Positions 2,415 to 17,994 of a stretch of DNA of 32,000 bases are shown in pieces; position 1 is the first letter of the stretch; the number at the start of each line of letters is the position of its first letter. The notes beneath the pieces were generated by a model. That model had not been told where the DNA came from. It was given only the letters and a program-made list of their open reading frames with translations, and did no database searches. The translations under genes and the position numbers were made by a program. The stretch spans positions 9,816-41,815 of the forward strand of contig NZ_RYFI01000018.1 of NCBI RefSeq assembly GCF_004103825.1. Reading direction: 5' to 3'. This DNA comes from Hansschlegelia zhihuaiae (GTDB lineage Bacteria > Pseudomonadota > Alphaproteobacteria > Rhizobiales > Methylopilaceae).

Positions 2415-3692
2415 TCACGCCGCGGGAAGGGCTTTGAGAACCTTGATGGCGTTGGTGTCGTAGGGCGATCCGCCGACCCGCTTGGTGCAGTAGAACAGCA
2501 CGTAGCCCTTGCGGGTGTACGGGTCGCGCAGCACCCGCATGTCGATCCGGTCGACGATGAGATAGCCGCGGTTGAAGTCGCCGAAGGCGATCGGGAATGT
2601 CCCGTTCGCGACGTCCGGCATGTTCTCGTCGATCTCGACCGGATAGCCCAGCAGCGTGGAGGGCTGGCTGCGCTCGACGCTCTGCCGCCACACGTAGTTG
2701 CCGTCCGCGTCCTTGATCTTGCTGATGATCCCGGCCGTTTTCGAGTTCATCAGCCAGGTCGCGTTGGCCCTGTACCCGGCCTTGAGCGTATAGACGAGGT
2801 CGATCAACTGATCGCACGAGGTCGGCTTGCCCGTTTCCGTGTCCAACTGCAGGGAGACGAATTCGATCTTGCCCCACGCTCGAACGTCGTCGCTCTCCGC
2901 GACCAGAGGCACGCTCAGGAAGCCGAGCGGCTTCGACACGCCGTCGCCTGTGATGAACGCGGCGTTCTCCTTCTCGTTGAAGGTGATCCGCACATCCTCC
3001 TGGAGCACGTTGAGGACGTCGAACGCCGAGTCGTCGAGCAGCTGCTGCGTCACAGCCGGCTGCGCGTACACTTCATTGGTCGGGACGGAGAGCATCCCCC
3101 ACTTCGGGGCGTCGGTCTCCGGACGGTCGTCATGCTCGGTCACCCAGCCGGCCGACAGCCCGCCCTTGTTGACCGGGATCTTGAACTCCGCAGCCCTGGA
3201 CGTCGCGAGGCGCGAGATCCGGCGCATCGCGCTGCCGTTGCGCAGGAACGTCATGATCTCGCGCGCCACCTCCTCGGGCACGAGATAGCCGCCGTCGACC
3301 TCGCTGCTGACCTGCAGCGGCGCGGCGAACTCGCTGTCCGCCACGGCCGTGAGGGCGCGGTGGTCCCCCGTCCGCATGAAGGCGAGCATCACCCCGCGAT
3401 CGCGATCAAGGCGCCCCGCCCGATCCTCGTCAGTCGCCATCTGCGAGAGCGCCACAGGCCGGCCATCGACGATACGCATCGGTCCCTGACGCCGGCCGAC
3501 GCCAGGGATCACCCGCCGGTCGCGCTCGTCGAGCTGGCGGCGAAGGTCGTCGATCGTGTCATTCGCTCGGCCGAGCGCCTCGGTCGTCGCCTGCGTGTTC
3601 TCCTCGAACGCGGCGGCCAGTTCCTCGAAAGAGCCGCTGCCGGCCAGCGGAGTGGCAGCGAAGGTCACGCGCGGAAGGGAAGTCGAAGTCAT
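2415..3692 (-). CDS. Phage major capsid protein, HK97 family (425 aa).
   Basis: N-terminal coiled-coil delta-like region (EELAAAFEENTQATTEALGRANDTIDDLRRQLDERD) followed by a typical HK97-fold body (GGYLVPEE.., ..FITGDG.., ..AFGDF..GY.I.DR). ATG at 3692 is preceded by AAGGAG at 8 nt and overlaps the protease stop (ATGA). Confidence 0.9.
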   Translation of the reverse strand: MTSTSLPRVTFAATPLAGSGSFEELAAAFEENTQATTEALGRANDTIDDLRRQLDERDRRVIPGVGRRQGPMRIVDGRPVALSQMATDEDRAGRLDRDRGVMLAFMRTGDHRALTAVADSEFAAPLQVSSEVDGGYLVPEEVAREIMTFLRNGSAMRRISRLATSRAAEFKIPVNKGGLSAGWVTEHDDRPETDAPKWGMLSVPTNEVYAQPAVTQQLLDDSAFDVLNVLQEDVRITFNEKENAAFITGDGVSKPLGFLSVPLVAESDDVRAWGKIEFVSLQLDTETGKPTSCDQLIDLVYTLKAGYRANATWLMNSKTAGIISKIKDADGNYVWRQSVERSQPSTLLGYPVEIDENMPDVANGTFPIAFGDFNRGYLIVDRIDMRVLRDPYTRKGYVLFYCTKRVGGSPYDTNAIKVLKALPAA

Positions 3693-4390
3693 CGGGAATG
3701 CTCCTTCATGGCGGCCGTGGCCGCGCGGACGCGAGCGGCGAGTGCTTTCGCGCGAGCCGCCTGGTCGGACAGAGGGGATCGGCGCGCATCGACCGCCGGC
3801 CATCCGCCGGCGGCGAGCTGCGTCGCCATGGTTTTCGAGAAGCCGACGCCGCGCAGCATCCGGTTGAAGTCGCGCTGCGTCGCGACGCTGGAAGCCGAGA
3901 GCAGCTGAGCCCTCGGGTCGGCCCCGACGGGGACCAGCGACACCTCGTGAAGGTCGATTTCAAGGACCGTCGCCGACTTCACGGCGTCCCGATTGTGACG
4001 CACGTCACGGGTCTGGAAGCCGATCGACAGGCCCGTGATGTCGCGAGCCTCGATCTGCTCGAACACCTCGGAACCCCAACGCGACTTGAGATTGATCTGG
4101 CCGGCAAGCCTCAGACCGTAGGAGTCGACGCTCATCTCGCTCCAGCGGCCGACGACGCGGTCGCTCTGATGGCCCAGCAACATCGCGGGCATCGTTCCGC
4201 GCTCCCGATGCTCCCGGATGGTCGCGTCGAGGGCGTGGGGGTCGATGATGAGATTGGCGCGGTTCGGGCTGGGCGTGAACGTCACCCCGTAGCCCGAGAT
4301 TCTGCCGTCTCGCGGCTTGGTCGCGCTGACGTCGAGCGCGAGGACCGGCCCGACGTGAAGTCCTGAGAAATCGAGTTGCTGATCGCTCAT
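3689..4390 (-). CDS. Phage prohead (head maturation) protease, HK97 family (233 aa).
   Basis: ISGYGVTF.., MLLGHQSDRVVG, GLSIGF, LHEVSLVPVGADPRA motifs. ATG at 4390 is preceded by AAGGTGG. Lies directly upstream of the capsid gene. Confidence 0.85.
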   Translation of the reverse strand: MSDQQLDFSGLHVGPVLALDVSATKPRDGRISGYGVTFTPSPNRANLIIDPHALDATIREHRERGTMPAMLLGHQSDRVVGRWSEMSVDSYGLRLAGQINLKSRWGSEVFEQIEARDITGLSIGFQTRDVRHNRDAVKSATVLEIDLHEVSLVPVGADPRAQLLSASSVATQRDFNRMLRGVGFSKTMATQLAAGGWPAVDARRSPLSDQAARAKALAARVRAATAAMKEHSR

Positions 4391-4926
4391 CGGCCACCTT
4401 TGGCGAAGCAAAACCCAGCGGGCGGCATGATGGCCGCCACGTAGAGCCTTGACCGAGCATCCCGCCCGCGCCGAAGGAGCCTCGAACCGCGCGCCCCAGC
4501 ATCCCGCCGGCGGCGCTCCTCAGTTCGATGAGCAGGTGAAGCGTAAGTCCGTCTCGAGTGATTTGACAAGAGGCCTCGTCGGCCTCCCGAAACCCTTGAC
4601 CCCGCAGCCCCACTCGTCAGCAGGTCGCCGCCGGGGGCGGGTTCGGTTCGTTCGATGGCCAGAGATTCACCGGCGAAGCGACCCGCGGCCTGGTGAGCAA
4701 GCACATCGTTCGCGACAGAAACGATGTCCGGCCGGCGAGCGCCGGCGGCCTCGACGCGTCGCCCGACGCACGGTCTCTCCCGTGCGCCAAGGTGGCCTAA
4801 GACTATGATCGATAAAAAAAATCTCGCGCTGAGTTTCGCGGCGGTTTTCGTTGCATTGACCCACCGGTCCGGGGCTGAAGGGTCCGAACTTTTGACCCGC
4901 CCCCCGCGGGGGCGGCCACCGACCTT

Positions 4927-5194
4927 GCGAGGGTTGCGAGGGTTCGCGAGGGTTCCCGTCAAACCCTCGCGGCCGAAATTCATATTATATATTAGATACT
5001 TATAAACATCTTGCGAGGGTTGCGAGGGTTTATAGACATGCACATAAGAGATTTCAGAAGTCATCCGCCTCTCCAATCGCTGTGTACGCGTGGGTGCGTA
5101 AACCCTCGCAACCCTCGCAAGCTCCTCAATCCTGAGGCCAGAACCCTCGCGCAAACCCTCGCCGAACCCTCGCAACCCTCGTCGCGCGAGGGTT
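4927..5194. repeat. Iteron-like array of the 9-mer GCGAGGGTT / AACCCTCGC.
   Basis: Forward copies at 4927, 4936, 4946, 5013, 5022 and 5186. Reverse copies at 4962, 5101, 5110, 5142, 5154, 5165 and 5174 (the last with 1 mismatch). One outlying reverse copy at 5440-5448. All counted directly from the sequence. Confidence 0.9.
4976..5012. other. Extremely AT-rich block (5 G/C in 37 nt) flanked by the iterons; candidate DNA-unwinding element.
   Basis: aaattcatattatatattagatacttataaacatctt, set in otherwise very GC-rich DNA. Confidence 0.5.
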
Positions 5195-5406
5195 GCGAGT
5201 ACGGGGAACTATTCATGGTGGGTTGCGGGTTGGCGGGGCGGCGGACCTGGAAACTGTCGGCCGACCCGATGAGGCAATGCCTGGTCGCGGCGCGCGGTGG
5301 CAGGCTCCGCGGTCCTTACCGGCCGCCAGGACGATCAGCCGAATCGGACATTTCAGCGAACGCCCAATAGCTGTGTCCCTAACGCCGGGAGGCGAAAGCC
5401 TGCCCC

Positions 5407-5439
5407 GCACCCCGCGGCCTTGAGAGGGCCGCGGGGTGC
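5407..5439. other. Perfect 13-bp stem / 7-nt loop hairpin, immediately followed by an iteron copy.
   Basis: GCACCCCGCGGCC-ttgagag-GGCCGCGGGGTGC. No U-tract on either strand. Confidence 0.6.
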
Positions 5440-5612
5440 AACCCTCGCGGCCAAACCCGTATCGATCGAAGGGAGAGGTCAGCAACATTCACGCGGCCCC
5501 TTTGAGGGTGCATCGCGTTTTGCAGTCGGCTTCAGAGAGCGTTGATCTTCTAAGGCGTCAGTTCTTGGCGTTTGTCAGAAGAACGCCTGATTTCCCAAAG
5601 GCCTAGTCGAAA

Positions 5613-5657
5613 CTACGAATCTGGGGGTCAGAGGTTCGAATCCTTTCGGGCGCGCCA
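5613..5657 (+). tRNA. Partial tRNA-Arg(ACG): anticodon loop through 3' CCA only, with no 5' half. Probable attR core of the integrated element.
   Basis: CTACGAA anticodon loop, GGGTC variable loop, T-arm AGAGG-TTCGAAT-CCTTT, acceptor 3' strand CGGGCGC, discriminator G, CCA. The 35 nt upstream cannot form the acceptor, D-arm or anticodon 5' strands. Confidence 0.7.
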
Positions 5658-5854
5658 GAATTGCCTCCGGTTCGAACAAGACCGCGTATTTGGGCGCTTC
5701 GCGAGAGCCCCAAGGCCGACTTGGGCTCGGGCGAACTCGAAAGATCGACTCAGCTCTGCGGTTTGAACCGAGGACGACGACGATCCGTAGCGGATCGAAG
5801 CCGTCCGCCACGCCGAGCGCCCACCTTTTCAGCCCGCAAGGCTCTTGCGGCGGG

Positions 5855-6841
5855 TCACCTCCGGGCGTCGGCGAGCGCGCGATATTCGCCGACCTGCCAG
5901 AGCAGGATCGCCGGAACGCCGATCGCCAGGTCGCGGCCGCGCTTCAGCAGCGAGAGCGCCACGGCGGTCGCCGGCGGCAGGCCGAACAGCGGCCCGATCA
6001 GCACATAGGCGGCCTCCTGGATGCCGATCGCGCCGGGCACCGCGAAGGCGACGCTGCGCAGCGTGAAGATCAGCGCTTCGATCGTCATCACCCCCCAGAA
6101 CGGCGTGTCCGCGCCCATGAAGACGAGCGCGATCCACGCTCCGGCGGCGCTCGCGATCCACGCCAGGAGATTGAAGACGAAGGCGGCGAGGACGCGGCGG
6201 GGTCGTCGATAGACGGCGTCGAGCTGTTCACGCACCGCCGTCATGACCGCCTCCGATCCCGGCAGCAGTCTCGCGCCGAGCGCGCCGGCGAGCTGGAGCA
6301 TCGGGCGCTGGGCGAAGGCGAACGACGCCGCGAGCGCCGCGAGCGCCGCCAATCCGCCGGCGGCCATGGGAGCGATGTTCGCCTGAACGGCGCTGTCCGT
6401 CACCACCAGCAGCAGCAGCGCCGCGACGCCCGCCAGACTGAACAGCAGTTGCGAGGCCATCTCGGTCGTCAGGTCCACGATCATCGAGGCGTAGATGACC
6501 CGGTCGGAAATGCCGCGCGCCGCGAGCGTGCGGACCCCAACCGCGATCCCGCCGAGGTGCGAGAACGGCAGCACATCGGTCGCGGCCTCGCGCGCCGTGC
6601 GCGCCCAGACGAAGAGCGGCAGGCGCGCAAGCGGCTCGTCCGGCGCGACGACGAGCCACGCCATGCCGAGCAGCGTCAGAACGCCTCCCGACCAGAGGAT
6701 GAACACCACCATGCCGATCCAGCCGATCGACGCCATCGCGTCGAGCACTTGCCGGCCCCCGACCGCGCCGATCGTCCAGGCGGCGATCGCGAAGCCGATC
6801 ACGGTCGCAAGCAGCAGCAGGGCGCGGCCGTATCGCCTCAC
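5855..6841 (-). CDS. hpnL: Hopanoid-associated integral membrane protein HpnL (LPG-synthase-TM/UPF0104-like), 328 aa.
   Basis: Polytopic membrane protein at the end of the hpnI-J-K operon. GTG start at 6841 overlaps the hpnK stop (GTGA). The Arg-rich N-terminal extension of ORF 5855-7126 is rejected. Confidence 0.75.
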   Translation of the reverse strand: MRRYGRALLLLATVIGFAIAAWTIGAVGGRQVLDAMASIGWIGMVVFILWSGGVLTLLGMAWLVVAPDEPLARLPLFVWARTAREAATDVLPFSHLGGIAVGVRTLAARGISDRVIYASMIVDLTTEMASQLLFSLAGVAALLLLVVTDSAVQANIAPMAAGGLAALAALAASFAFAQRPMLQLAGALGARLLPGSEAVMTAVREQLDAVYRRPRRVLAAFVFNLLAWIASAAGAWIALVFMGADTPFWGVMTIEALIFTLRSVAFAVPGAIGIQEAAYVLIGPLFGLPPATAVALSLLKRGRDLAIGVPAILLWQVGEYRALADARR

Positions 6842-7668
6842 GGGAGATCCCCGAAGCGCGCCAGCGCCATGCCCTGCTCGGCGACCACATCGCGGAGGGC
6901 CATGAGCGCGGCGAGTTCGTCCGCATAGCGATAGCCCGGCGCGTGGCCCGGCCATGCGTCCGCGACGGCAGGATGGACGTAGATCTCGGTCACGCCGTCC
7001 GGCAGCGCCGCCAGCAGGCGTCTCAGCCGCTCCGCATGCATCGCGCCGCTCCAAGCGAGGCCGAACACCTGATCGGGAACGATCACGCCGGCGCGGCGGA
7101 AGCGTGCGGCGAGAAGGCGCGCCCACAGGATCGCCGGATCCCGCCGCGCCGTCACGCCAGGCTCCGCCGCCGCGAGCACGGCGCGCGGCTCGACCGGCGC
7201 GCGGGCGGCGCGCATGCCGTATCGCCTGCCGATCCTCAGGATCAGAGACGCGATGACGGGGTGGAGATGGAAATGCTTGTGCGCGTTGACGTGGTCGAGC
7301 GGCAGGCCGTTCGCCGAAAAGGCCGCGAACTGCGCTTCGATCTCGTTCGCGAGCTGGCGGCGCGCGGCGGGTCTGACTGTCACGCCGATCGCCGCCCGCA
7401 ACATGTCGCCGCGGAACCGGCCCGAGGAATCGACGAGATGCGAAACCTGTTCCGGCGGCAGCGTCGGGCGGCCCTCCACCAGCACGAGATGGAGCCCGAC
7501 CCCGAGAGACGGCAGCCGGCGCGCGCGCTCGACGGCGTCATCTGCGGCGGGCCCGGCGACCATCAGGCTCGCCGCGGTCAGCACGCCGTCGCGATGCGCC
7601 CGCTCGACCGCCTCGTTGACCGCGACGTCCGCGCCGAAATCATCGGCGGTGACGATAAGGGTCTTCAC
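6838..7668 (-). CDS. hpnK: HpnK, YdjC-family deacetylase (BHT-N-acetylglucosamine deacetylase).
   Basis: MKTLIVTADDFG.. and ..HVNAHKHFHLHP.. are YdjC hallmarks. GTG start at 7668 overlaps the hpnJ stop. Confidence 0.85.
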   Translation of the reverse strand: MKTLIVTADDFGADVAVNEAVERAHRDGVLTAASLMVAGPAADDAVERARRLPSLGVGLHLVLVEGRPTLPPEQVSHLVDSSGRFRGDMLRAAIGVTVRPAARRQLANEIEAQFAAFSANGLPLDHVNAHKHFHLHPVIASLILRIGRRYGMRAARAPVEPRAVLAAAEPGVTARRDPAILWARLLAARFRRAGVIVPDQVFGLAWSGAMHAERLRRLLAALPDGVTEIYVHPAVADAWPGHAPGYRYADELAALMALRDVVAEQGMALARFGDLP

Positions 7669-9098
7669 CCAGCGGCGTCCGCTTCCTTGCGCCGCCGCAG
7701 AAAGTCGAAGAACTCGACGCCTTCGCGCAGGCGCCGCTTCATCATGTCCCAGTCGCGCAGCATCTCGGAGACGATCGACCAGATCTTCGACGGCCTGAAA
7801 TAGAACCGCTTATAGAACTCCTCGACCTTGTGGTAGATGACGGCCGCCGGCAGGTGCGGATAGCTCAGCTGCGCGATCTGGTCGCCGCCGTCGGTCAGGA
7901 GGTGATCGCCGCCGTCGAACCAGCCGTTCTCGGTCGCCTGCCGGTAGAGGAACGTGCCCGGATAAGGCGCGGCCAGCGACACCTGAATGGTGTGGGGGTC
8001 GATGTCCTTGGCGTACTCGATGGTTTCTTCGATCGTCTCCTCGGTCTCGCCCGGGAGGCCGAGGATGAAGGTGCCGTGGATGACGATGCCGAGCGCGTGG
8101 CAATCCTTGGTGAAGCGGCGCGCCACGTCGGTGCGCATGCCCTTCTTGATGTTGTGCAGGATCTGCTGGTTGCCGCTCTCGTAGCCGACGAGCAGCAGGC
8201 GCAGGCCGTTGTCCTTCATCACCTTCAGCGTCTTGTACGGGACGTTGGCCTTGGCGTTGCAGGACCAGACGACTCCGAGCCTGCCGAGCTCGACGGCCAG
8301 CTCCTCGACGCGCGGCAGGTTGTCGGTGAGCGTGTCGTCGTCGAAGAAGATCTCCTTCACCTCCGGCATCTCGGCCTGCACGTATTTCACCTCTTCGATC
8401 ACGTGGGCGATCGACCGGGTGCGGTAGTTGTGGCCGCCCACGGTCTGGGGCCAGAGGCAGAAGGTGCAGCGGCTCTTGCAGCCGCGCCCGGTGTAGAACG
8501 ATACGTAAGGGTGCAGCAGGTAGCCGCCGAAATACTTCTCGAGCTGCAGGTCGCGCTTGTAGACCGGCGCGACGAAGGGCAGCAGATCCATGTTCTCCAG
8601 CACCGGACGATCGGCGTTGTGGACGATCTCGCCGGCTTCGTTGCGGTAGCTGATCCCGGCGATGTCCGGCAGCGGAAGCCCCATCGCGACGTCGAGGATC
8701 GTGAAGTCGAACTCGTTGCGCGCGACGAAATCCACCGCCGGCGCCGCCTCGAGCGACGTCTGCGGCTCGACCGCCACCTTCGCGCCGATCATGCCGATGA
8801 CGAGCTTCGGATTGCGCGCCTTGAGCAGCTCGGCGGTGCGGACGTCCTGCCGGAACGACGGCGTCGAGGTGTGCAGGATGACGAGGTCGCGCTCGTCGGC
8901 CTCATGGCTGATGTCGTCCCAGCCGAGGCCGTGCGCCGGGGCGTCGATCAGCTTCGAGCCTTCGACCAGGGCCGCGGGCTGCGCGAGCCAGGTCGGATAC
9001 CAGAACGACTTGACCTCGCGCTTCATCTGGTAGCGCGCGCCGGCGCCGCCGTCATAACCGTCGAAGGAGGGCGCCTGGAGGAACAGGGTCCGCATCAT
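7665..9098 (-). CDS. hpnJ: HpnJ, B12-binding-domain radical SAM enzyme (BHT cyclitol ether formation), 477 aa.
   Basis: CKSRCTFC radical-SAM CxxxCxxC motif with an N-terminal B12-binding-like region. ATG at 9098 overlaps the hpnI stop (ATGA). Confidence 0.85.
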   Translation of the reverse strand: MMRTLFLQAPSFDGYDGGAGARYQMKREVKSFWYPTWLAQPAALVEGSKLIDAPAHGLGWDDISHEADERDLVILHTSTPSFRQDVRTAELLKARNPKLVIGMIGAKVAVEPQTSLEAAPAVDFVARNEFDFTILDVAMGLPLPDIAGISYRNEAGEIVHNADRPVLENMDLLPFVAPVYKRDLQLEKYFGGYLLHPYVSFYTGRGCKSRCTFCLWPQTVGGHNYRTRSIAHVIEEVKYVQAEMPEVKEIFFDDDTLTDNLPRVEELAVELGRLGVVWSCNAKANVPYKTLKVMKDNGLRLLLVGYESGNQQILHNIKKGMRTDVARRFTKDCHALGIVIHGTFILGLPGETEETIEETIEYAKDIDPHTIQVSLAAPYPGTFLYRQATENGWFDGGDHLLTDGGDQIAQLSYPHLPAAVIYHKVEEFYKRFYFRPSKIWSIVSEMLRDWDMMKRRLREGVEFFDFLRRRKEADAAG

Positions 9099-10237
9099 GA
9101 TGTCTGGTCCCGACGGTTCTCGAGGCGACCTGCAGCGTCCACGGCGAAGGTCGCGCCGCGCCATTCAACTGAACCCCTGAAGAATGTCCAGACGAACACG
9201 GCGAAGGAAAGGAGGTCACGCGCCGGGATCCAGCGCAGCGGCGCGGCGCGCGCGGCCGCCCGCCGGTCGACCAGCAGCGCGATCGTCAGCCGGGCCGCGA
9301 GCGCCGCGCCGATCGCCGCCAAGGACAGCGGCGTGAATCCCAGAAAGGCCGCCCCGACGAGCGCGGTCGGAAAGGGATGCAGAACGACGCTGCCGGCGAA
9401 GCCGGCCTTGTCGAGGCGCTGGATCGTGAGGCTCCAGCGCAGCTCCTGCCGGAGCAGCGCCTTCAGGCTGGTTTCGGCGCAGGCATGGGTCAGCAGCAGG
9501 TCGGCCAGGACGACCTCTTCGCCTCGGGCCCGGACGGCCGCGCCGATCGCATAGTCGTCGGCGAGACGGTCGGAGAACGCCGCAAATCCGCCGATCGCCT
9601 CGAGCGTCCGCGCTCGGAGCGCGATGGTCGATCCCATGCATGGGCTGGCGAGGCCGAGAGCCGTGCCGAGCAGGACGCTCGGCAGGAAGTGGGCGTTGAT
9701 CCCCATCGCGGCGAGCCGCGACCATCCCCCGGCGTCGCCGCGCCCGCGGTAGAGGCAGGTGACCGCCCCCACGCCCGGCGCGTCGAGCGCCGCCGTCACG
9801 CGCGCCAGATAGTCGCGGCCGACGGCCATGTCGCTGTCGCTCACGATCAGAACGGCGTGGCGGGCCTTGGCAGCCATGTTGACGAGGTTGGAGATCTTGG
9901 CGTTCGCGCCGTGGATCGTAGGATCGACCACCAGCGTGATGTCGGCCTGCGGGCGCGCCTCGCGCAAGGCTTGCACGACGGCGATCGCCGGGTCGGAGGC
10001 GCTCTGGACGCCGCAGACGAGCTGAACCGGACCGTCATGATTCTGGTCTAGGAAGCTCGCCAGATTGGCGAGCAGCTCCGGCTCCGCGCCGTGCAGCGGC
10101 TTCAGGATGGTCACAGCGTCGGCGCGGATCGCCGCGGGGGATCGCGGCGCGAACCGAAAGAGGCGCGCCGCGGCGACCAGCAGGCACGCCGTTCCGGCCG
10201 CGGACAGCAACAGCAGGGCGTAGCCGGCATAGTCCAT
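9095..10237 (-). CDS. hpnI: HpnI, family-2 glycosyltransferase (ceramide-glucosyltransferase-like), 380 aa from ATG 10237. The longest ORF runs to 10321.
   Basis: N-terminal TM helix followed by a GT2 core (..VTILKPLHG.., ..VSDSDM.., ..DDYAIG.., ..QELRW..). Start 10321 would overlap the hpnA start codon on the other strand and has no RBS. Confidence 0.8.
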   Translation of the reverse strand: MDYAGYALLLLSAAGTACLLVAAARLFRFAPRSPAAIRADAVTILKPLHGAEPELLANLASFLDQNHDGPVQLVCGVQSASDPAIAVVQALREARPQADITLVVDPTIHGANAKISNLVNMAAKARHAVLIVSDSDMAVGRDYLARVTAALDAPGVGAVTCLYRGRGDAGGWSRLAAMGINAHFLPSVLLGTALGLASPCMGSTIALRARTLEAIGGFAAFSDRLADDYAIGAAVRARGEEVVLADLLLTHACAETSLKALLRQELRWSLTIQRLDKAGFAGSVVLHPFPTALVGAAFLGFTPLSLAAIGAALAARLTIALLVDRRAAARAAPLRWIPARDLLSFAVFVWTFFRGSVEWRGATFAVDAAGRLENRRDQTS

Positions 10238-10319
10238 GACCGACCAATGCCCCAGTCGCGCAAGAAGGTCGATCTCTGCTTCTCGCGATACGGTGAGGCG
10301 TTTAGGGTCGATCGTCGTC
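10238..10319. promoter_or_regulatory. Divergent hpnI / hpnA intergenic region; presumed to hold both promoters.
   Basis: Positional inference only; no consensus promoter elements were recognised. Confidence 0.3.
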
Positions 10320-11333
10320 ATGGAGGAAACGCTGACCCGATCGTCCGACCTTGTCCTTCTGACGGGCGCGTCAGGCTTTGTCGGGGCGGCCGTCGCGCGC
10401 GCTTTGCTGCGGCGCGGCTACAAGGTGCGGGCGATGGCGCGCGCGTCGAGCCCAAGGACCAACCTCGCCGACCTCGACGCGGAGATCGTGGTCGGCGACT
10501 TGCTCGACCGCGCGTCGCTCGATCGCGCGATGGCGGGCGTCGCGCGCCTCTGCCATGTCGCCGCGGACTACCGCATCTGGGCGCCGGATCCCGAGGAGAT
10601 CGTCCGCAACAACCTGGCCGGAACCCGTAACCTCATGGAGGCGGCGCTCGCGGCCGGCGTCGAGCGGATCGTCTACACCAGCAGCGTCGCGACGCTGCGA
10701 CCGGACCCCGCGGGAGTCGCCGACGAAAGCCGACCCGCGGCGCCGGACCAGGCGGTCGGCGCTTACAAGAGAAGCAAGGTCGAGGCGGAGCGGATGGTCG
10801 AACGGATGGTCGCCGAGCGCGGCCTGCCCGCGGTGATCGTGCTGCCCTCCACGCCGATCGGGCCGCGCGACGTGCGGCCGACGCCGACCGGACGGATCGT
10901 CGTCGAGGCGGCGTCGGGACGGATGCCGGCCTTCGTCGAGAGCGGGCTCAACCTCGTCCATGTGGACGACGTCGCGGAAGGCCACGTGCTGGCGCTGGAG
11001 CGCGGCCGGATCGGCGAGCGCTACATCCTGGGCGGCCAGGACGTTTCGCTGCGCGCGATGCTGGCGACGATCGCGCGGCTCGCCGGGCGCCGGGCGCCGA
11101 CGATCAGCCTGCCGCGCGCGCCGCTGTTTCCGCTCGCCTGGGTCAATGAGCGGATGGCGCGACTGACGGGCAGGGAGCCTTTCCTGACGCTCGACGGACT
11201 GCGCATGGCGGCGCATGCGATGTATTTTTCGAGCGCGAAAGCGCAGAACGAGCTCGGCTACAGCGCGCGGCCCTACGAAGCGGGGCTGAAAGACGCCATC
11301 GACTGGTTCCGGCGCGAGGGAATGATCGCGTGA
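10320..11333 (+). CDS. hpnA: HpnA, hopanoid-associated NAD-dependent sugar epimerase/dehydratase-family protein, 337 aa.
   Basis: LLTGASGFVGAAV Rossmann motif and YKRSK catalytic YxxxK. First gene of the plus-strand hpn operon. Confidence 0.85.
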   Translation: MEETLTRSSDLVLLTGASGFVGAAVARALLRRGYKVRAMARASSPRTNLADLDAEIVVGDLLDRASLDRAMAGVARLCHVAADYRIWAPDPEEIVRNNLAGTRNLMEAALAAGVERIVYTSSVATLRPDPAGVADESRPAAPDQAVGAYKRSKVEAERMVERMVAERGLPAVIVLPSTPIGPRDVRPTPTGRIVVEAASGRMPAFVESGLNLVHVDDVAEGHVLALERGRIGERYILGGQDVSLRAMLATIARLAGRRAPTISLPRAPLFPLAWVNERMARLTGREPFLTLDGLRMAAHAMYFSSAKAQNELGYSARPYEAGLKDAIDWFRREGMIA

Positions 11334-12196
11334 TCGACATCGCGACGGCGGCCGGGAGCACGACCGCGGGGAAGCTCGCATCCGGCAAGGACCACCGACA
11401 GGAGAATTTCCCGGTCGCCTCGATTGTGCTGAAGCGCGAGCAGCGGGCGCCCATCATGGCGTTCTACCGGTTCGCGCGGGCCGCCGATGACGTCGCCGAC
11501 AATCCGACGGCGAGCGCCGCGGAGCGGCTGTCCGTGCTCGCCGCGATGCGATCGACGCTGGCCGGAGAGAGCGACGAAAGCGAGGAGGCGCGCGCCCTGC
11601 GCGCCGTTCTGACCGAGCGCGGGCTGACGCCGCGCCACGGCCTCGACCTGCTCACCGCGTTCGAGCGCGACTGCACGGTCGCCCGCTACCGGACATGGGA
11701 CGACCTGATCGGCTACTGCCGGCATTCGGCCATGCCGGCCGGGCGCTATGTGCTCGACGTCCATGGCGAATCCCAGGCGACCTGGCCGGCCTCGGACGCG
11801 CTGTGCGCGGCGCTGCAGATCATCAATCACCTTCAGGACTGCGCGAAGGATTTCCGCGCGCTCGATCGGGTCTATCTGCCGCTCGAGATGCTGGCCGAGA
11901 ACGGGGCGGAGGTCGGCGATCTCGGGGGCCCCGCGGCGACGCCGGGATTGCGGGCGACCATCGAACAGATGGCGACGCGAACCGACGATCTTCTGGGCCA
12001 ATCCGCAAGCTTCGCCGCGCAGATCCGCGACCGGCGGCTCTCCGTGGAGGTCGCGATCATCCACCGTCTCGCGACGAGCCTGACGGCGCGACTGAAGACG
12101 CGCGATCCACTCTCGCAACGGGTGCATCATCGCCGGCGCGAAGCGCTCTGGCTCGCGGCGACCGCCGGGCTGTCGCGCCTGGCGGGCCGGTCATGA
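11330..12196 (+). CDS. hpnC: HpnC, squalene-synthase-like enzyme (presqualene diphosphate to hydroxysqualene).
   Basis: ENFPVAS.., ..FYRFARAADDVAD Asp-rich motif. GTG start overlaps the hpnA stop (GTGA). Confidence 0.85.
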   Translation: MIDIATAAGSTTAGKLASGKDHRQENFPVASIVLKREQRAPIMAFYRFARAADDVADNPTASAAERLSVLAAMRSTLAGESDESEEARALRAVLTERGLTPRHGLDLLTAFERDCTVARYRTWDDLIGYCRHSAMPAGRYVLDVHGESQATWPASDALCAALQIINHLQDCAKDFRALDRVYLPLEMLAENGAEVGDLGGPAATPGLRATIEQMATRTDDLLGQSASFAAQIRDRRLSVEVAIIHRLATSLTARLKTRDPLSQRVHHRRREALWLAATAGLSRLAGRS

Positions 12197-13032
12197 CCGC
12201 CAAGGCGGCCCCGGCCTCGCTGCAGGCGCAGGTCTCGGGGAGCTCGTTCTATGCCGGGATGCGCGTGCTGCCCAAGGCCGAGCGCGAGGCGATGTACGCG
12301 GTCTACGCCTTCTGCCGCGCGGTCGACGACATCGCCGATGACGCGACCGGCGATCGCGCCGGGCGCGCCGCAGCGCTCGACGCGTGGCGCGACGATATCG
12401 AGGCGCTCTATGCCGGGCGCGATCCGGGCAAGGCGGCGTTCCTCGCCGAGGCGGTCGCGCACTTCGGGCTCGACAAGGCCGATTTCCTCACCGTGATCGA
12501 CGGCATGGCGATGGACGTCGCGGGCGACATCCGCTGGCCGCCCTTCGCGACGCTCGATCTCTACTGCGACCGGGTCGCGTCGGCGGTCGGGCGGCTTTCG
12601 GTCCGGGTTTTCGGGATGGACCGCGCCATTGGCGTCGCGCTCGCGCGCCATCTCGGCCGGGCGCTGCAGCTCACCAACATCCTGCGCGACATCGACGAGG
12701 ACGCCGCGATCGGCCGGGTCTATCTCGCGGCCGAGCACCTTCAGTCCGCCGGAATCGCCTTGACGACGCCGCTCCATGTCGTCAGAGACCCGCGGCTCGA
12801 CGCCGCCTGCCGCGAACTGGCGGCGGTCGCCCATACCCACTATCGGGCGGCCGGCGCGATTCTCGCGAAACGGCCGCGCGGCCATCTGATCGCGCCGCGG
12901 TTGATGGCCGCGGTCTACGCCAAGCTCCTGCGCCGGATGGAGGCCGTCGGCTGGGCGCCGCCCCGAATCCCGGTCAAGGTCAACAAGGCGGCGCTGATCT
13001 TCACGCTCATGCGCCTGAGCCTGCTTCGTTGA
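12193..13032 (+). CDS. hpnD: HpnD, presqualene diphosphate synthase, 279 aa.
   Basis: SSFYAGMRVLP.., ..FCRAVDDIADD. ATG at 12193 overlaps the hpnC stop (ATGA). The long Arg-rich upstream extension from 11695 is rejected. Confidence 0.85.
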   Translation: MTAKAAPASLQAQVSGSSFYAGMRVLPKAEREAMYAVYAFCRAVDDIADDATGDRAGRAAALDAWRDDIEALYAGRDPGKAAFLAEAVAHFGLDKADFLTVIDGMAMDVAGDIRWPPFATLDLYCDRVASAVGRLSVRVFGMDRAIGVALARHLGRALQLTNILRDIDEDAAIGRVYLAAEHLQSAGIALTTPLHVVRDPRLDAACRELAAVAHTHYRAAGAILAKRPRGHLIAPRLMAAVYAKLLRRMEAVGWAPPRIPVKVNKAALIFTLMRLSLLR

Positions 13033-14282
13033 AGAGGCGCGCTTGGGTCATCGGCGCGGGTCTTGCGGGCTTGTCGGCCGCGGTCGAGCTCACGCAGGCC
13101 GGCTTCGCGGTCGAGGCGGCGGAGGCCGCCGCGCAGGCCGGCGGACGCTGCCGCAGCCACCACGATCCGAAGCTCGGCCGCGTCATCGACAACGGCAACC
13201 ATCTGGTCCTGTCCGGCAACGAGGCGGTGGCGCGGTATCTGGCGACGATCGGCGCGAGCGACCGGCTGAGCGGACCGGACGCGGCGGCGTTCCCGTTCGT
13301 GGATCGCGCGAGCGGCGCGCGCTGGACGTTCCGGCCGAACCAGGGGCGCTTGCCGTGGTGGATGTTGGCGCGCGACAGGCGGACGCCGGGAACGACGGCC
13401 CTGTCGCATGCGCGTTTCGTCTCGCTGATGACGGGCGCGCATGGGCAAACCGTCGCCGCGCGGGTCGACCCACAAGGGCCGGTCTGGGACAAGCTGCTGA
13501 GGCCGGTGCTGCTCGCCGCGCTCAACACCGCCCCCGAGGAAGCGTCGGCCGCGCTTACCGCGTCCGTGATCCGTGAGACGCTGGCGCGCGGCGGGCGGGC
13601 GATGCGGCCGATGATCGCCGAACCCAGCCTCGCCGCAGCCTTCGTCGACCCCGCGCTGGCGTGGCTCGCGGCGCGCGGCGTCGCGGTCGCGGTCGGCCGT
13701 CGGCTCAAATCGCTGACCATCGAGGGGGATCGCATCGCCGGGCTCGATTTCGGCGACGGCGGAAGACCAGTGGCGGCGAACGATGCGGTCGTCCTCGCGG
13801 TCCCGCCCTGGGTCGCCGCGGCGCTGCTCCCCGGCCTCACGGTTCCGGACGAGCACCGGGCGATTGTGAACGCGCATTTCGCGTATCGGCCGCCGGCGGA
13901 AGCGCCTCGGATGATCGGCGTCATCGGCGGCGACGCAGAATGGATCTTCGCGTTCGACGACCGGATCTCGGTGACGGTCAGCGCGGCCGACCGCCTGATC
14001 GACGTCGATCGCGAACAGCTCGCCCGGCGCTTCTGGGCCGACATCGCCGCGGTCCACGGCCTGCCCGTCGCCCTGCCGCCCTGGCAGATCGTCAAGGAGA
14101 AGCGCGCGACTTTCGCCGCGACGCCCGCGCAGGACGCCAGACGTCCGCCCGCCGCCACACGCTGGCGCAACCTCATTCTCGCCGGGGACTGGACCCAGAC
14201 CGGGCTGCCCGCCACCATCGAGGGCGCGCTCCGCTCGGGCGCGACCGCCGCCCGCTTGGCGGCGGCGCTTCGCGTCGTGTAG
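13029..14282 (+). CDS. hpnE: HpnE, FAD-dependent hydroxysqualene dehydroxylase (amine-oxidase family), 417 aa.
   Basis: VIGAGLAGL dinucleotide-binding motif 6 aa after a TTG start that overlaps the hpnD stop (TTGA). No ATG or GTG is available near the motif. Confidence 0.8.
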   Translation: MKRRAWVIGAGLAGLSAAVELTQAGFAVEAAEAAAQAGGRCRSHHDPKLGRVIDNGNHLVLSGNEAVARYLATIGASDRLSGPDAAAFPFVDRASGARWTFRPNQGRLPWWMLARDRRTPGTTALSHARFVSLMTGAHGQTVAARVDPQGPVWDKLLRPVLLAALNTAPEEASAALTASVIRETLARGGRAMRPMIAEPSLAAAFVDPALAWLAARGVAVAVGRRLKSLTIEGDRIAGLDFGDGGRPVAANDAVVLAVPPWVAAALLPGLTVPDEHRAIVNAHFAYRPPAEAPRMIGVIGGDAEWIFAFDDRISVTVSAADRLIDVDREQLARRFWADIAAVHGLPVALPPWQIVKEKRATFAATPAQDARRPPAATRWRNLILAGDWTQTGLPATIEGALRSGATAARLAAALRVV

Positions 14283-14291
14283 GCGTCGGTC

Positions 14292-16223
14292 ATGGATTTC
14301 GTCCTCGAAACGTCCGACATCATCAGCGAGGCGGACCGATGCGCGAACCGCGCCGCGGAGGCGATGAGAGCGGCGCAGCGCGAGGACGGCCACTGGGTGT
14401 TCGAGCTCGAGGCCGACGCCACGATCCCGGCCGAATTCGTGCTGCTCAAGCACTTCCTGGGGGAGCCGCGCGACGCGGCGCTCGAGGCCAAGATCGGCGT
14501 CTATCTGCGCCGCATCCAGGGCGACCATGGCGGCTGGCCGCTGTTTCACGGCGGCGCGCTCGACGTCAGCGCGAGCGTGAAGGCCTATTTCGCCCTCAAG
14601 GTGATCGGCGACGACGTCGACGCGCCCCACATGGCGCGCGCCAGGGCCGCGATCCTGGCCGCCGGCGGCGCCGAGGCGGTGAACGTCTTCACCCGCATCC
14701 AGCTCGCGCTGTTCGCGGCCGGCCCCTGGGACGCGGTCCCCATGCTGCCCGTCGAACTCATCCTGCTGCCGCGCTGGTTCCCGGTGCATCTTTCGAAAAT
14801 GTCCTACTGGTCGCGCGCCGTGATCGTGCCGCTGCTCGTGCTCGGCGCGCTGAAGCCGGTGGCGCGGGATCGGTCGGTTCGGGTCGACGAGCTGTTCACC
14901 GGCAGGCGGACGTCGCCAACCAGCAAGGCCGCGGGCGCGAAGCCCTTGTGGGGCGCGCTGTTCAACGGACTCGACGCCGTCTTGAAGCGGGTCGAGCCGT
15001 TCTTCCCCAAGACGCTCCGCCAGCGCGCGATCGACGCCTGCGTCGCCTTCGTGGTCGAGCGGCTCAATGGCGTCGACGGGCTCGGAGCGGTCTATCCGGC
15101 GATGGCGAACTGCGTGATGATGTTCGCCTGCCTCGATTACCCGGAAGATCACCCGCACCGGGCGGCGGCGCGCGAGTCCCTCGAGCGGCTGCTCGTGATC
15201 GGCGAGGACGAGGCTTACTGCCAGCCCTGCGTCTCGCCGGTCTGGGACACCGCTCTCGCCGCCCACGCCATGATGGAGGCGGGCGACGACGCCTCCGCCC
15301 GAGCCGCGCTCGACTGGCTGAAGCCGCTGCAGGTGCTCGATCTGAAGGGCGACTGGGCGGAGAGGCGGCCGGGCGTCCGGCCGGGCGGCTGGGCCTTCCA
15401 GTACAACAACGCGCACTACCCCGATCTCGACGACACCGCCGTCGTCGTCATGGCGATGGACCGGGCGAAAGGCCGGAGCGGCGGAGCCTATGACGAGGCG
15501 ATCGCGCGCGGCGCGGAGTGGACGGCGGGCCTGCAGAGCCGCGACGGCGGCTGGGGCGCGTTCGACGCCGACAACAGCCACCATTACCTCAACAACATCC
15601 CGTTCGCCGATCACGGCGCGCTGCTCGATCCGCCGACCAGCGACGTGACGGCGCGGTGCCTCTCCATGCTGGCCCAGCTCGGCGAGCGGGACACGCCCCG
15701 CGTGAAGGCGGCGCTGGCGTTCCTCGAGAAGGAGCAGATGCCGGATGGCAGCTGGTTCGGCCGCTGGGGGGTGAACTACATCTACGGGACCTGGTCGGCG
15801 CTGTGCGCGCTGAACGCCGCGGGGGTGGACCCGGCGTCGCCCATGGTGCGCAGAGCGGTCGACTGGCTGGTCTCGATCCAGAACGACGACGGCGGCTGGG
15901 GCGAGGACTGCGAAAGCTATGCGCTCGACTATGCCGGATATGCGCCGGCGCCGTCGACCGCGTCCCAGACGGGATGGGCGCTGCTCGGCTTGATGGCCGC
16001 CGGCGCGGTGCGCGAGCCGGCGGTGGAGCGGGGGGTTCGCCACCTCGTCGCGACACAGGGCGCCGACGGGTTCTGGCGGCAGGACTTCCACACCGGCGGC
16101 GGCTTCCCGCGCGTGTTCTACCTGCGCTACCACGGCTATCCGAAGTATTTCCCGCTCTGGGCGCTGGCGCGCTATCGCAATCTCGTGCGCTCGAACGGCT
16201 CCTCCGTGGCGTTCGGGATGTGA
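14292..16223 (+). CDS. shc: Squalene-hopene cyclase.
   Basis: DLDDTA catalytic motif (HYPDLDDTAVVV) and multiple QW repeats (QSRDGGWGAF, QNDDGGWGE, QMPDGSWFGRWG). Confidence 0.95.
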   Translation: MDFVLETSDIISEADRCANRAAEAMRAAQREDGHWVFELEADATIPAEFVLLKHFLGEPRDAALEAKIGVYLRRIQGDHGGWPLFHGGALDVSASVKAYFALKVIGDDVDAPHMARARAAILAAGGAEAVNVFTRIQLALFAAGPWDAVPMLPVELILLPRWFPVHLSKMSYWSRAVIVPLLVLGALKPVARDRSVRVDELFTGRRTSPTSKAAGAKPLWGALFNGLDAVLKRVEPFFPKTLRQRAIDACVAFVVERLNGVDGLGAVYPAMANCVMMFACLDYPEDHPHRAAARESLERLLVIGEDEAYCQPCVSPVWDTALAAHAMMEAGDDASARAALDWLKPLQVLDLKGDWAERRPGVRPGGWAFQYNNAHYPDLDDTAVVVMAMDRAKGRSGGAYDEAIARGAEWTAGLQSRDGGWGAFDADNSHHYLNNIPFADHGALLDPPTSDVTARCLSMLAQLGERDTPRVKAALAFLEKEQMPDGSWFGRWGVNYIYGTWSALCALNAAGVDPASPMVRRAVDWLVSIQNDDGGWGEDCESYALDYAGYAPAPSTASQTGWALLGLMAAGAVREPAVERGVRHLVATQGADGFWRQDFHTGGGFPRVFYLRYHGYPKYFPLWALARYRNLVRSNGSSVAFGM

Positions 16224-16903
16224 CGATCCTGGTCGCCTGCGGATTGCGGCGCGAAGCCCGCATGATGAGAGGGCGCGGCCTCGTTCCCGTCGTCGGCGGC
16301 GGCAGGGCGACCGCGCTCGAGGACGAGCTGGAGCGCCGCGTCACGCGGTTCGCGCCGGTCGCCGCGATCCTGTCCAGCGGCCTCGCCGGAGCGCTCGACC
16401 CGTCCCTGAAGCCCGGCGACGTCGTCGTCGGACATCTGGTCGCCTCGGCGGATGGAGGAAGCTCCATTCTGGAGAGGATCAGGGCTCTCCTCCCGCAGGC
16501 GCGGGTCGGCCCGATCGTCGGCAGCGACGTGATCGTGGCCACGGTCGAGGAGAAGCGCGCGCTTCACGCCCGCACCGGCGCCGTCGCGATCGACATGGAG
16601 TCCCACATAGCCGCCCGCGTCGCCGCTCGCCACGGCCTGCCGTTCGCGGCGCTGCGGACGATCTCCGACGGCGCGGACCAAGAGCTGCCGACCGCGGCGC
16701 TTGTCGGGCTGCGGCCCGACGGGCGGATGGCGGTCGGCGCCGTTCTGGCGTCGCTCGCGCGCGATCCGGCGCAGCTGTCGGCTCTCATGGGCGCCGCGAT
16801 CGGCGCCGAACGCGCGTTCCGGGCGCTACTCCGCAGCCACGACGTGCTTGCCCGCGCGGGGATTGGCGGCGCGGATCCGGGCCAGCTCCCGCTCGACATG
16901 TGA
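16220..16903 (+). CDS. hpnG: HpnG, nucleoside-phosphorylase-family adenosylhopane nucleosidase, 227 aa.
   Basis: PNP/UDP-family motifs (..AIDMESH.., ..LRTISD..). GTG at 16220 overlaps the shc stop (GTGA). Confidence 0.8.
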   Translation: MTILVACGLRREARMMRGRGLVPVVGGGRATALEDELERRVTRFAPVAAILSSGLAGALDPSLKPGDVVVGHLVASADGGSSILERIRALLPQARVGPIVGSDVIVATVEEKRALHARTGAVAIDMESHIAARVAARHGLPFAALRTISDGADQELPTAALVGLRPDGRMAVGAVLASLARDPAQLSALMGAAIGAERAFRALLRSHDVLARAGIGGADPGQLPLDM

Positions 16904-17971
16904 GGCGTGGACGTCTTCGGCCGGCCTCTGGTTCGCCAGGCTGACATCGGGCGCCATCGGCCCGTCCGTCCGCACGCCCTTGCGGCTGACGCTCAGCATC
17001 TTGAGCGGGTGACGGAGCGAGTCGGCGGCGGCCGTTCCCTCGAACCCGCAATGGACCATGCAGTCGGCGCATTTCTCGTACTTGCCGACGCCGTACTGGC
17101 TCCAATCGGTGCCGTCCATCAGCTCCGCGAATGTCGAGACGTAGCCTTCGCCGACCAGGTAACACGGCTTCTGCCAGCCGAAGACGGTGCGCAGCGGCAT
17201 GGACCAGGGCGTGCACTCATAGGTCTGGTTGCCCGCGAGGAAGTCGAGGAACAATGGCGAGTTGGTGAAGCTCCAGGCCTTGCCGCCGCGTCCGCGCTTG
17301 AACAGGTCGCGGAAAAACTGACGCGTCTTCTGGCGGCTCAGGAAATGCTCCTGATCGGGCGCGCGCTCATAGGCGTATCCCGGCGAGATCGTGATCTCGA
17401 CGCCCATCTCCTGCATCTTGTCGAAGAAGCCGGCGAGCCGCTCGGGGCTCGCGCCGTCGAACACGGTGCAATTGATCTGGACGCGGAAGCCCTTCGCCTT
17501 CGCGATCTCGATCGCCTCATAGGCGACCTCGTAGACACCCGCGCGGCAGACGGAGTGATCGTGCATCGCCTTGTCGCCGTCGAGGTGGATTGACCAGGCG
17601 AAACCGGGGTCGGGCTTGTAGTCGTCGATCTTTTTCTTCAGCAGCAGCGCGTTGGTGCAAAGGATCACGAATTTCTTCTTGGCGAGGAAGCCCTTCACGA
17701 TCCGCGGCATGTCCCGGTGCAGCAGCGGTTCGCCGCCCGCGATCGACACCGCGGGCGCCCCGCATTCGTCGATCGCCTCCATGCACTGCTCGTAACTGAG
17801 CCGCTGATTGAGGATCGGATCGGGATAGTCGATCTTGCCGCAACCGGCGCAGGCGAGATTGCAGCGCAGCAACGGCTCCAGCATCAGCACCAGCGGATAT
17901 TTGCCGCCCTTGAGGTGCTGCCGGACGGCGTAACCGCCAATGCGCATCATCTGAGGGAGGGGAAGACCCAT
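16826..17971 (-). CDS. hpnH: HpnH, radical SAM adenosylhopane synthase, 381 aa.
   Basis: CNLACAGC radical-SAM motif near the N-terminus. ATG at 17971 has AGGA 9 nt upstream. The N-terminal extension to 18097 is rejected. Confidence 0.9.
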   Translation of the reverse strand: MGLPLPQMMRIGGYAVRQHLKGGKYPLVLMLEPLLRCNLACAGCGKIDYPDPILNQRLSYEQCMEAIDECGAPAVSIAGGEPLLHRDMPRIVKGFLAKKKFVILCTNALLLKKKIDDYKPDPGFAWSIHLDGDKAMHDHSVCRAGVYEVAYEAIEIAKAKGFRVQINCTVFDGASPERLAGFFDKMQEMGVEITISPGYAYERAPDQEHFLSRQKTRQFFRDLFKRGRGGKAWSFTNSPLFLDFLAGNQTYECTPWSMPLRTVFGWQKPCYLVGEGYVSTFAELMDGTDWSQYGVGKYEKCADCMVHCGFEGTAAADSLRHPLKMLSVSRKGVRTDGPMAPDVSLANQRPAEDVHASHVERELARIRAANPRAGKHVVAAE

Positions 17972-17994
17972 AGATATCGTCCTGTCGTTCCGGC

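Follow-up and report, generated by a model that had tools for sequence, protein, structure and literature searches.

The island and its iteron array

The 32,000-nucleotide stretch of Hansschlegelia zhihuaiae contig NZ_RYFI01000018.1 analysed here (the window) contains a dense, non-coding cluster of a short repeat, or iteron, near the end of what appears to be an integrated element (the island), and the possible role of this cluster as a replication origin is the subject of this report. The window divides into two parts, as seen from the GC content of third codon positions (GC3) and from Pfam and PHROG matches: to the left of about 5.6 kb are island genes on the minus strand, and from position 5855 onwards is a chromosomal hopanoid cluster. 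The recognisable island genes are those for a Peptidase_S78 prohead serine protease (3689–4411, minus strand), which is the first gene downstream of the repeats, and for an HK97-type major capsid protein identified by Pfam and PHROG matches (2415–3803, minus strand, with a likely start at 3695). Both reading frames are intact with a strong GC3 coding signal, and are accompanied on the same strand by four small open reading frames (ORFs). These are the only two virion, packaging or lysis genes that can be recognised in the visible 5.6 kb of the island, a content that agrees with a satellite lacking most such functions.

At the right-hand boundary of the island there is a tRNA 3′ fragment on the plus strand (5613–5657), with a CTACGAA anticodon loop (anticodon ACG, arginine), a GGTTCGAATCC T arm, the acceptor end and CCA. 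This fragment occurs nowhere else in the window and scores 19.5 bits against the Rfam tRNA model, below threshold, with the T arm and acceptor aligned; ARAGORN found no intact tRNA in the window, and neither Rfam nor ARAGORN scans revealed an RNA gene in or near the array. The fragment is probably the attachment (att) site at the island end. In a relative that is 95% identical (97% in shc), synteny with the window begins only at position 5836, and the DNA to the left of about 5.8 kb is therefore a strain-specific accessory segment. Non-coding DNA extends for about 1.2 kb from att to the protease gene and contains the array, with 515 bp lacking a convincing ORF on the protease side (4412–4926), and 420 bp of non-coding DNA followed by att on the side where related phages carry a primase-helicase gene.

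The repeat is the 9-mer GCGAGGGTT, and an exact-match scan gave the same inventory as an earlier, sequence-only reading of this DNA: 13 perfect copies and one copy with a single mismatch, on both strands, within 4927–5448. Exact copies start at 4927, 4936, 4946, 5013, 5022 and 5186 on the plus strand and at 4962, 5101, 5110, 5142, 5154, 5165 and 5440 on the minus strand, and the mismatched copy, ACGAGGGTT, is at 5174–5182 on the minus strand. No further exact copy occurs in the 32 kb outside this region, and there are just two other single-mismatch matches, both isolated, at 13448 and 28890. Given the dinucleotide composition of the window, 0.0065 exact copies are expected in 522 bp and the probability of 13 or more is about 6e-39; the dense mixture of direct and inverted short repeats that is looked for in an iteron origin is thus present at a level far above chance. 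The AT-rich segment that should adjoin such repeats is also present: the GC minimum among 37-mers is at 4976–5012, with 5 G/C in surroundings that are 63–70% GC (63–77% over the window), which is the stretch described in the sequence-only reading, and homologous arrays have an AT-rich spacer at the same place. A dispersed host repeat of the repetitive extragenic palindromic (REP) or miniature inverted-repeat transposable element (MITE) type was considered and rejected, with no exact copy elsewhere in the window and with the same cassette found elsewhere beside phage genes; the REP-type dispersal that the earlier reading had raised as an objection to itself is not seen. A literature search with GCGAGGGTT returned unrelated primers only.

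Several copies of the repeat face each other, and the hairpins that had been proposed from the outermost facing pairs are real: one at 4945–4971 has a 10-bp stem (−12.3 kcal/mol, z −5.7) and another at 5169–5199 has a 13-bp stem (−17.3 kcal/mol, z −6.4). So is the hairpin noted beside the outlying copy, a GC-rich structure with a perfect 14-bp stem (5407–5439, −21.0 kcal/mol, z −4.6) that abuts the lone iteron at 5440–5448. This last unit (5407–5448) is 245 bp beyond the conserved cassette, on the att side, and no counterpart to it was seen in the phage arrays described below.

The cassette in phages and its linkage to a primase-helicase

Searches of IMG/VR and metagenome sequences with the dimer GCGAGGGTTGCGAGGGTT as query recovered it from 66 IMG/VR stretches and at least 120 metagenome stretches, many of the metagenome matches being chance dimers or simple tandem runs. 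Among the matches listed, to which all of the array counts given here refer, there are 55 viral and 32 metagenomic true clustered arrays (87 in total), with 4–13 copies in both orientations over about 250–300 bp; the 13 perfect sites of the window copy are the maximum of any array seen. A search for the 9-mer and its architecture in related phages had been suggested by the sequence-only reading, and both prove to be conserved there. A blastn search of the array against deposited phage genomes gave no match, for which either the low-complexity filter or a true absence may be responsible.

Clustering of the flanking ORFs places the array in the gap between the stop codon of one large gene, here called C0, and the start of the next. 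No more than 600 bp separate the 3′ end of C0 from the array in 50 of the 55 viral and 23 of the 32 metagenomic cases (73/87 overall), and nearly all of the remaining 14 have no sequence on the C0 side; in all 73 informative arrays C0 ends on the side of the block designated A below, mostly within 120 bp of it. The gene on the other side varies while the iteron stays identical: it is usually C1 (PHROG 9306, of unknown function), sometimes an unrelated gene (C16, C32 or C146), or there is none, and HNH/TerS/TerL genes or GpA-type terminase genes follow. The same GCGAGGGTT repeat is found with terminases of the GpA type (12 loci) and of the TerL+HNH+Terminase_4 type (5 loci), and with several TerS-like families. 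In two loci (L067 and L077) a capsid gene about 6.5 kb downstream of the array encodes a protein about 40% identical to that of the window.

The homologous arrays have a common architecture. Reading from C0 towards the late genes, there are block A (2–4 copies plus one inverted copy), a spacer, block B (a tandem dimer), a central spacer of 65–90 bp, block C (an inverted dimer or trimer), an AT-rich spacer of 40–70 bp, and block D (one copy facing two or three), which in the phages directly precedes the start codon of the first late gene. The window minus strand aligns with the phage arrays from end to end (alignment A1) across a cassette of about 270 bp (4927–5194), and DNA similarity of the window to phage loci is limited to 4919–5195. 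On this strand, block A (5142–5194) has same-sense copies at 5142, 5154, 5165 and 5174, the last with the mismatch, together with an inverted copy at 5186–5194, and lies on the side where the phages have the primase-helicase gene. The A–B spacer (5119–5141) is 23 bp, short as in L221 and L193, compared to about 45 bp in most phage arrays. Block B (5101–5118) is a tandem dimer that is invariant across all aligned arrays, the central spacer (5031–5100, 70 bp) is asymmetric with alternating purine/pyrimidine tracts at both ends, and block C (5013–5030) is an inverted tandem dimer. The C–D spacer (4971–5012) is AT-rich, with 10 G/C in 42 nt, and is a candidate DNA-unwinding element; in block D (4927–4970), the copy at 4962–4970 faces three others (4946, 4936 and 4927). 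Comparison with the homologous arrays thus refines the two blocks around an AT-rich core of the sequence-only reading to four blocks, with the AT-rich segment as the C–D spacer and the true cassette centre at 5031–5100.

Because the central spacer is asymmetric and the AT-rich spacer has a defined position, the minus strand can be assigned as the sense of the cassette; the opposite, plus-strand reading (C0-to-C1), which the near-palindromic blocks allow, was rejected on these two features and on the full alignment. The cassette is thus colinear with the protease and capsid genes, as it is in the phages. L221, in which 7 bp separate the end of C0 from block A, and L193 are the arrays nearest to the window copy. 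Relative to them the spacers have diverged, but none of the four blocks is disrupted and 13 of the 14 copies are perfect, a pattern suggestive of selection on the iterons. In most phage arrays the interval from block B to block C contains a GGGGyyNCGGGG motif with flanking alternating purine/pyrimidine tracts (cgcgcacgtgtgtat...), as for example at L117:1800–1860 and L091:5340–5400, and it is present twice in the Rhodobacter phage RcapNL, a Capnelvirus (L130:4390–4410 and 4510–4530). The motif is degenerate in the central spacer of the window (GGAGAGGCGG) and is absent from a copy on an Acuticoccus plasmid, described below.

C0 is named 'phage/plasmid primase, P4 family' by NCBI and occurs in Xanthobacter, Methylobacterium, Bosea, Kaistia and others. 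Its domains are Prim-Pol (in the long forms), D5_N, DUF5906, and a C-terminal Pox_D5/RFX-like region, which scores 26 bits with Pox_D5 and 26.9 bits with RFX_DNA_binding, for which the cut-off is 27. An AlphaFold 2 (AF2) model of the full-length protein, with a predicted local distance difference test score (pLDDT) of 86, superposes on the hexameric helicases African swine fever virus (ASFV) PrimPol and MPXV (mpox) E5, and its C terminus has a winged-helix topology (H-E-E-H-H-E-E at residues 473–543).

As judged from sequence comparisons, several observations point to C0 as the protein that binds the iterons, and to the array as its origin. First, C0 is the sole constant neighbour of the array. 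Secondly, the repeat changes as the primase diverges, while keeping its position 3′ of a C0-type gene. The iteron is GCAAGGGAC in RcapNL, whose primase is 34% identical, GGGCCTGA in Paracoccus phage Pthi1, where it also lies 3′ of the primase, GGACAGTT on a 54-kb plasmid of Rhizobium rhizoryzae, and GGTGCGGTT in a Methylococcaceae satellite (L053); a phage-plasmid of Methylobacterium currus, with a primase that is 52% identical, keeps AACCCTCGC-family repeats. Primases with less than 45% identity thus have different iterons, a correlation for which the physical linkage of gene and repeat is a confounder. Thirdly, the P4 alpha/crr, SaPI and PICI origins have the same layout. The iteron-binding module would be the predicted winged-helix domain at the C terminus of C0. 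Two other candidate readers were rejected: about 16 arrays have an identical iteron but no C1, and TerS is unlikely because one and the same 9-mer accompanies at least two unrelated terminase systems, as well as several unrelated TerS types.

Satellite phage P4 has clusters of short iterons in both orientations (ori and crr), one of which is beside the 3′ end of the alpha gene, and the P4 protein and C0 are alike in being multidomain 'P4 family' proteins with a primase, a superfamily 3 helicase and, as predicted for C0, a C-terminal winged helix; the window differs in its iteron sequence, its four-block layout and the absence of an initiator gene. In Staphylococcus aureus pathogenicity islands (SaPIs), phage-inducible chromosomal islands (PICIs) and capsid-forming PICIs (cf-PICIs) the origin is immediately 3′ of the initiator gene, as it is in the phage arrays, and iterons flank AT-rich DNA; the island in the window further resembles these elements in being probably tRNA-integrated and in having head-morphogenesis genes. 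The Methylococcaceae satellite L053 is an example with a PICI gene order (tRNA, P4-type integrase, CHC2 primase, D5-like helicase, iterons, SSB, HNH, capsid). However, known satellites use an origin and an initiator of their own (PMC10803314), whereas the island here has an origin-type cassette with no visible initiator, and cf-PICIs have a full head and packaging set, compared to only the protease and capsid here. The cassette grammar is also shared with the region downstream of the RcapNL primase gene, gp64, where there are forward iterons, a GGGGTTCGGGG motif, a forward dimer, an alternating purine/pyrimidine tract, reverse iterons, an AT-rich spacer and further reverse iterons, followed by the first late gene, HNH, TerS and TerL. 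RcapNL differs from the window in its iteron, in being a complete phage with its own primase, and in having genome ends annotated inside this region.

The window itself contains no gene of this type. No C0 or C1 homolog was found in the 32 kb, in keeping with the earlier remark that no gene in the window obviously encodes the cognate binding protein, and tblastn and tblastx searches of the flanks (4380–4930 and 5190–5700) for remnants of C0, C1, terminase and portal genes gave compositional noise only. An origin of this kind would be expected to adjoin its initiator gene; in the window, att is on that side instead.

Sister islands and orphan cassettes

The closest relatives of the window capsid (46–55% identical) are encoded not by phages but by small, tRNA-integrated islands of about 11–12 kb (L253:6800–17650, L252, L254, and L255:~6000–17960). 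The Phreatobacter island L253 contains, in order, three small ORFs, a gene for a 260-amino-acid protein with HTH_36 and DnaA_N domains, an 85-amino-acid ORF, the S78 protease, the capsid, a 755-amino-acid tape-measure-like protein, a cI-like helix-turn-helix protein, three ORFs, and a tyrosine integrase abutting a tRNA-Cys. The tape-measure-like protein is 650–755 amino acids long across the sister islands, and in L255 (Bradyrhizobiaceae SG-6C) the integrase is beside a tRNA-Arg(TCT) at the island end. No portal, terminase or tail genes were found in the sister islands, and there is no primase-helicase in any part of their roughly 11 kb. They look like an uncharacterised family of capsid-encoding satellites in the Hyphomicrobiales and Sphingomonadaceae.

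The element in the window has the same topology as these islands (an att fragment, a replication slot, the protease and the capsid), although only the protease and capsid are homologous. In L252–L254 the slot upstream of the protease and capsid genes, which in the window is held by the iteron cassette, is occupied by the gene for a lambda-O-like replication initiator, which is how PHROGs classifies the 260-amino-acid protein of L253, with an origin inside the gene. This internal origin (L253:8270–8440, L252:780–950 and L254:1585–1750) has four AAACCTCGCA iterons, an AT-rich stretch and a gcgcgtgtgcgcgtgag tract, and is placed within the initiator gene as in lambda O/ori-lambda; the window has no O-like gene. 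Where a satellite would be expected to have a replication module of its own, the visible part of the window element thus shows an ori-type cassette with no initiator gene in view. The AAACCTCGCA iteron is one indel from AACCCTCGCA of the window, a likeness that could reflect coincidence, a shared host factor, or origin mimicry, and no homology was detected between the winged helix-turn-helix region of the O-like protein and the C terminus of C0. We also note that the gcgcgtgtgcgcgtgag tract resembles the central spacer of the phage arrays.

The cassette is also found on plasmids without C0. The complete 35.8-kb Acuticoccus plasmid p3 has a 9-copy cassette and no C0 homolog anywhere, and plasmid pB of Methylobacterium sp. 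FF17 (NZ_CP107534.1; L125/L127) has a 12-copy cassette with no C0 within the 50 kb examined. Both are RepA/ParA replicons in which the cassette is 1.5–3 kb from repA, and the likeness among the orphan copies is confined to the cassette itself. Two metagenomic copies are similarly orphaned, one (L150) with a CtrA-like neighbour, as on pB, and the other (L160) beside a PAS/MCP/PilZ gene; L132 and L196 are possible further cases. On pB the cassette is among plasmid-borne paralogues of global regulators, including three CtrA, two MucR and several Crp/Fnr proteins.

Proposed firing in trans and competing explanations

The sequence-only reading of the array as an iteron origin of the phage or satellite type is supported on comparative grounds by the position of the cassette 3′ of a P4-family primase-helicase in 73 of the 87 arrays and, separately, by the sister islands, which hold a lambda-O-like initiator with an internal origin in the same slot. 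The explanation that we favour, with confidence evenly poised between acceptance and doubt, is that the array is the complete replication-origin cassette of a family of temperate phages and phage-plasmids in Alphaproteobacteria and is fired in trans by a helper phage. Because the cassette stands without an initiator gene at the end of a capsid-encoding island, helper dependence is probable, and the island would then be a mobilisable satellite. On infection by, or induction of, a phage of the GCGAGGGTT-iteron family, the phage primase-helicase would bind blocks A–D and melt an adjacent spacer, either the AT-rich segment at 4971–5012 or the central spacer. It would then load itself and prime synthesis, and the excised island would be amplified in step with the helper.

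Several points weigh against this explanation. Only about 5.6 kb of the island is visible, and a C0 gene may lie beyond the left edge of the window; neither an island integrase nor an intact tRNA was seen in the window, and the integrase would likewise lie beyond the edge. The named hosts of C0 are Hyphomicrobiales, whereas the shc protein of the window points to a Sphingomonadaceae host, and no helper is known for the host. With its degenerate GGGGyyNCGGGG motif, the window copy may bind the initiator but not fire. We infer the binding of the 9-mer by C0 itself from sequence, and the C-terminal domain of C0 is no more conserved than its ATPase core in the conservation profile, although a GR(I/V)RxY...DVP motif is common to the GCGAGGGTT group and is replaced in RcapNL and Pthi1. 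A phmmer search against PDB sequences returned no P4 alpha chain, and hence no match to the solved P4 alpha origin-binding domain, and an AF2 model of the C-terminal domain by itself reached a pLDDT of only 49 and was unusable.

The plasmid copies suggest a broader form of the same idea, which we advance more tentatively, as a possibility somewhat short of probable: that the mini-island and at least two RepA plasmids have pirated the cis origin of a phage, possibly together with its cos site, without the initiator. It is with similar reserve that we suggest that these elements are replicated by the primase-helicase of the helper at infection, and are perhaps readied for packaging. Satellites known so far, even the minimalist PICMIs, have retained a replication protein and an origin of their own (PMC10803314), and an island lacking an initiator would differ from them. 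If such piracy is real, this would be the first natural satellite lineage in which replication initiation is wholly outsourced, and the cassette would be a tag, portable between elements, that says 'replicate me when phage X arrives'. Firing in trans would mean that a satellite can dispense entirely with replication initiation as a function of its own; the helper range of the island could then be read from its sequence as any phage whose primase-helicase reads GCGAGGGTT, and the plasmid copies could be explained by phage-triggered amplification, transduction, or action as a decoy. In practical terms, the cassette provides a 270-bp element and a named family (P4-family primases in Xanthobacter and Methylobacterium prophages) for direct study, as well as a conserved marker for this phage family and its parasites in alphaproteobacterial genomes.

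A packaging site, already offered as an alternative in the sequence-only reading, is the first competitor to be considered, and we regard it as unlikely. Here the cassette would be, or contain, a cos site at which the helper terminase cuts and packages the island and the plasmids as natural cosmids, with the iterons acting as sites for terminase or an accessory protein on either side of a cosN in the C–D spacer; a combined ori-plus-cos is a sub-variant. The phage cassettes do lie at the junction of replication genes and HNH/TerS/TerL genes, and the island, with no visible terminase, would need a packaging signal compatible with a helper. Moreover, in the GenBank record of RcapNL (NC_020489.1) the genome ends (L130:4571–4638 and L131:1–78) are annotated with 26-nt 3′ cohesive overhangs, with inverted 13-mers at both ends, which places the cohesive end in the spacer analogous to C–D and bracketed by inverted iterons. 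However, RcapNL is listed as circularly permuted in Table 3 of PMC8601537, which contradicts the GenBank feature, and the C–D spacer of the window shares no sequence with the RcapNL overhang. The identical 9-mer is found alongside two or more unrelated terminase systems, as well as several TerS-like families, and is thus not specific to one terminase as a cos or pac site would be, and satellite L053 has the layout of a PICI origin, with the primase followed by iterons. The shared iteron weakens the packaging alternative, to which the annotated RcapNL end still lends some probability.

Another simple explanation, which we consider quite improbable, is that the array is an ordinary cis origin displaced from a C0-type gene that the island itself carries beyond the left edge of the window. 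The island can be seen only in its right-hand 5.6 kb, which leaves room for such a gene, and other satellites, such as L053 and PICMI (PMC10803314), carry their own primase. The arrangement would nevertheless be without parallel among the 73 informative arrays, in all of which C0 is no more than 600 bp from block A and mostly within 120 bp, whereas the block A side of the window is 420 bp of non-coding DNA and then att; the sister islands also manage without a primase-helicase anywhere in their approximately 11 kb.

A functionless array, left over in a prophage or satellite that has decayed, is more doubtful again. The absence of C0, C1, terminase and portal genes, the degenerate central G-motif and the approximately 1.2 kb of non-coding DNA around the array are what decay might leave behind, but 13 of 14 iterons are perfect, in four intact blocks between diverged spacers. 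The protease and capsid ORFs are also intact, with a strong GC3 signal, and the reduced gene set matches that of the sister islands, which are intact.

Phage-encoded resistance (PER) offers a precedent for a defensive role, in which the cassette would titrate the phage initiator or trigger futile replication and so shield the host. PER elements are non-coding phage ori fragments in lactic acid bacteria, such as the 302-bp Sfi21 element, a phage origin that lies apart from the replication genes and is active only on infection (PMC6356513), and the window shares with them a non-coding phage origin of about 300 bp that is separate from replication genes. The lack of coding sequence, the maximal number of perfect sites (13), the degenerate central motif, and the orphan copies on plasmids and beside cellular genes all fit a decoy. 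We nonetheless give this explanation little weight, as the known PER effects depend on copy number, with multicopy or cloned fragments in Firmicutes compared to a natural single chromosomal copy here, and a cassette that occupies the replication slot of a capsid-encoding island is more likely to serve the life cycle of the island itself. Finally, that the repeats are an operator for a late or head-operon regulator, or a centromere for a partition protein, is the least plausible proposal: block D does abut the first late gene in phages and both plasmid copies are 1.5–3 kb from repA/parA modules, but the array is not accompanied by a regulator or ParB-like gene, the downstream gene varies while the iteron remains identical, and integrated prophages need no centromere.

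A few other features of the window and of the loci compared with it are worth recording. To the left of the capsid gene, a minus-strand ORF (899–1531) encodes a 210-amino-acid protein with no family match, which shows weak full-length similarity (27% identity, pairwise E 0.002) to a protein of a Xanthobacteraceae element (L001:13899–14600) whose gene comes after that for a tape-measure-like protein; it may be a conserved island gene. Repeats of a different kind are found in Brevundimonas, where AGTGGCGAG forms paired, hairpin-like inverted clusters between portal-like and protease genes (L010:8017–8400 and L050:7080–7511); AGTGGCGAG occurs 22 times across L010 and is dispersed and REP-like, unlike the window 9-mer. 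The 95%-identical relative has at the island position (L260:1–1545) a cas2 gene, an IS5-like pseudogene and a CRISPR array in which a 36-bp repeat (agcttagcggtctggtgattgagggccaaccgcaac) occurs about 11 times, such that no clean attB can be defined by comparison with this genome, and the region beside the hopanoid cluster is a strain-variable hotspot. The hopanoid cluster itself (5855–22189) looks complete, with genes for LPG_synthase_TM-like, YdjC, B12 radical SAM, GT21 and epimerase proteins, two SQS_PSY proteins, an amine oxidase, shc, an hpnH-like radical SAM/DUF3463 protein, ispH and an MMPL transporter; the cluster of the relative also has a purine nucleoside phosphorylase-like gene. The closest named relatives of the shc product in the window are Sphingomonas proteins, with 77–81% identity.

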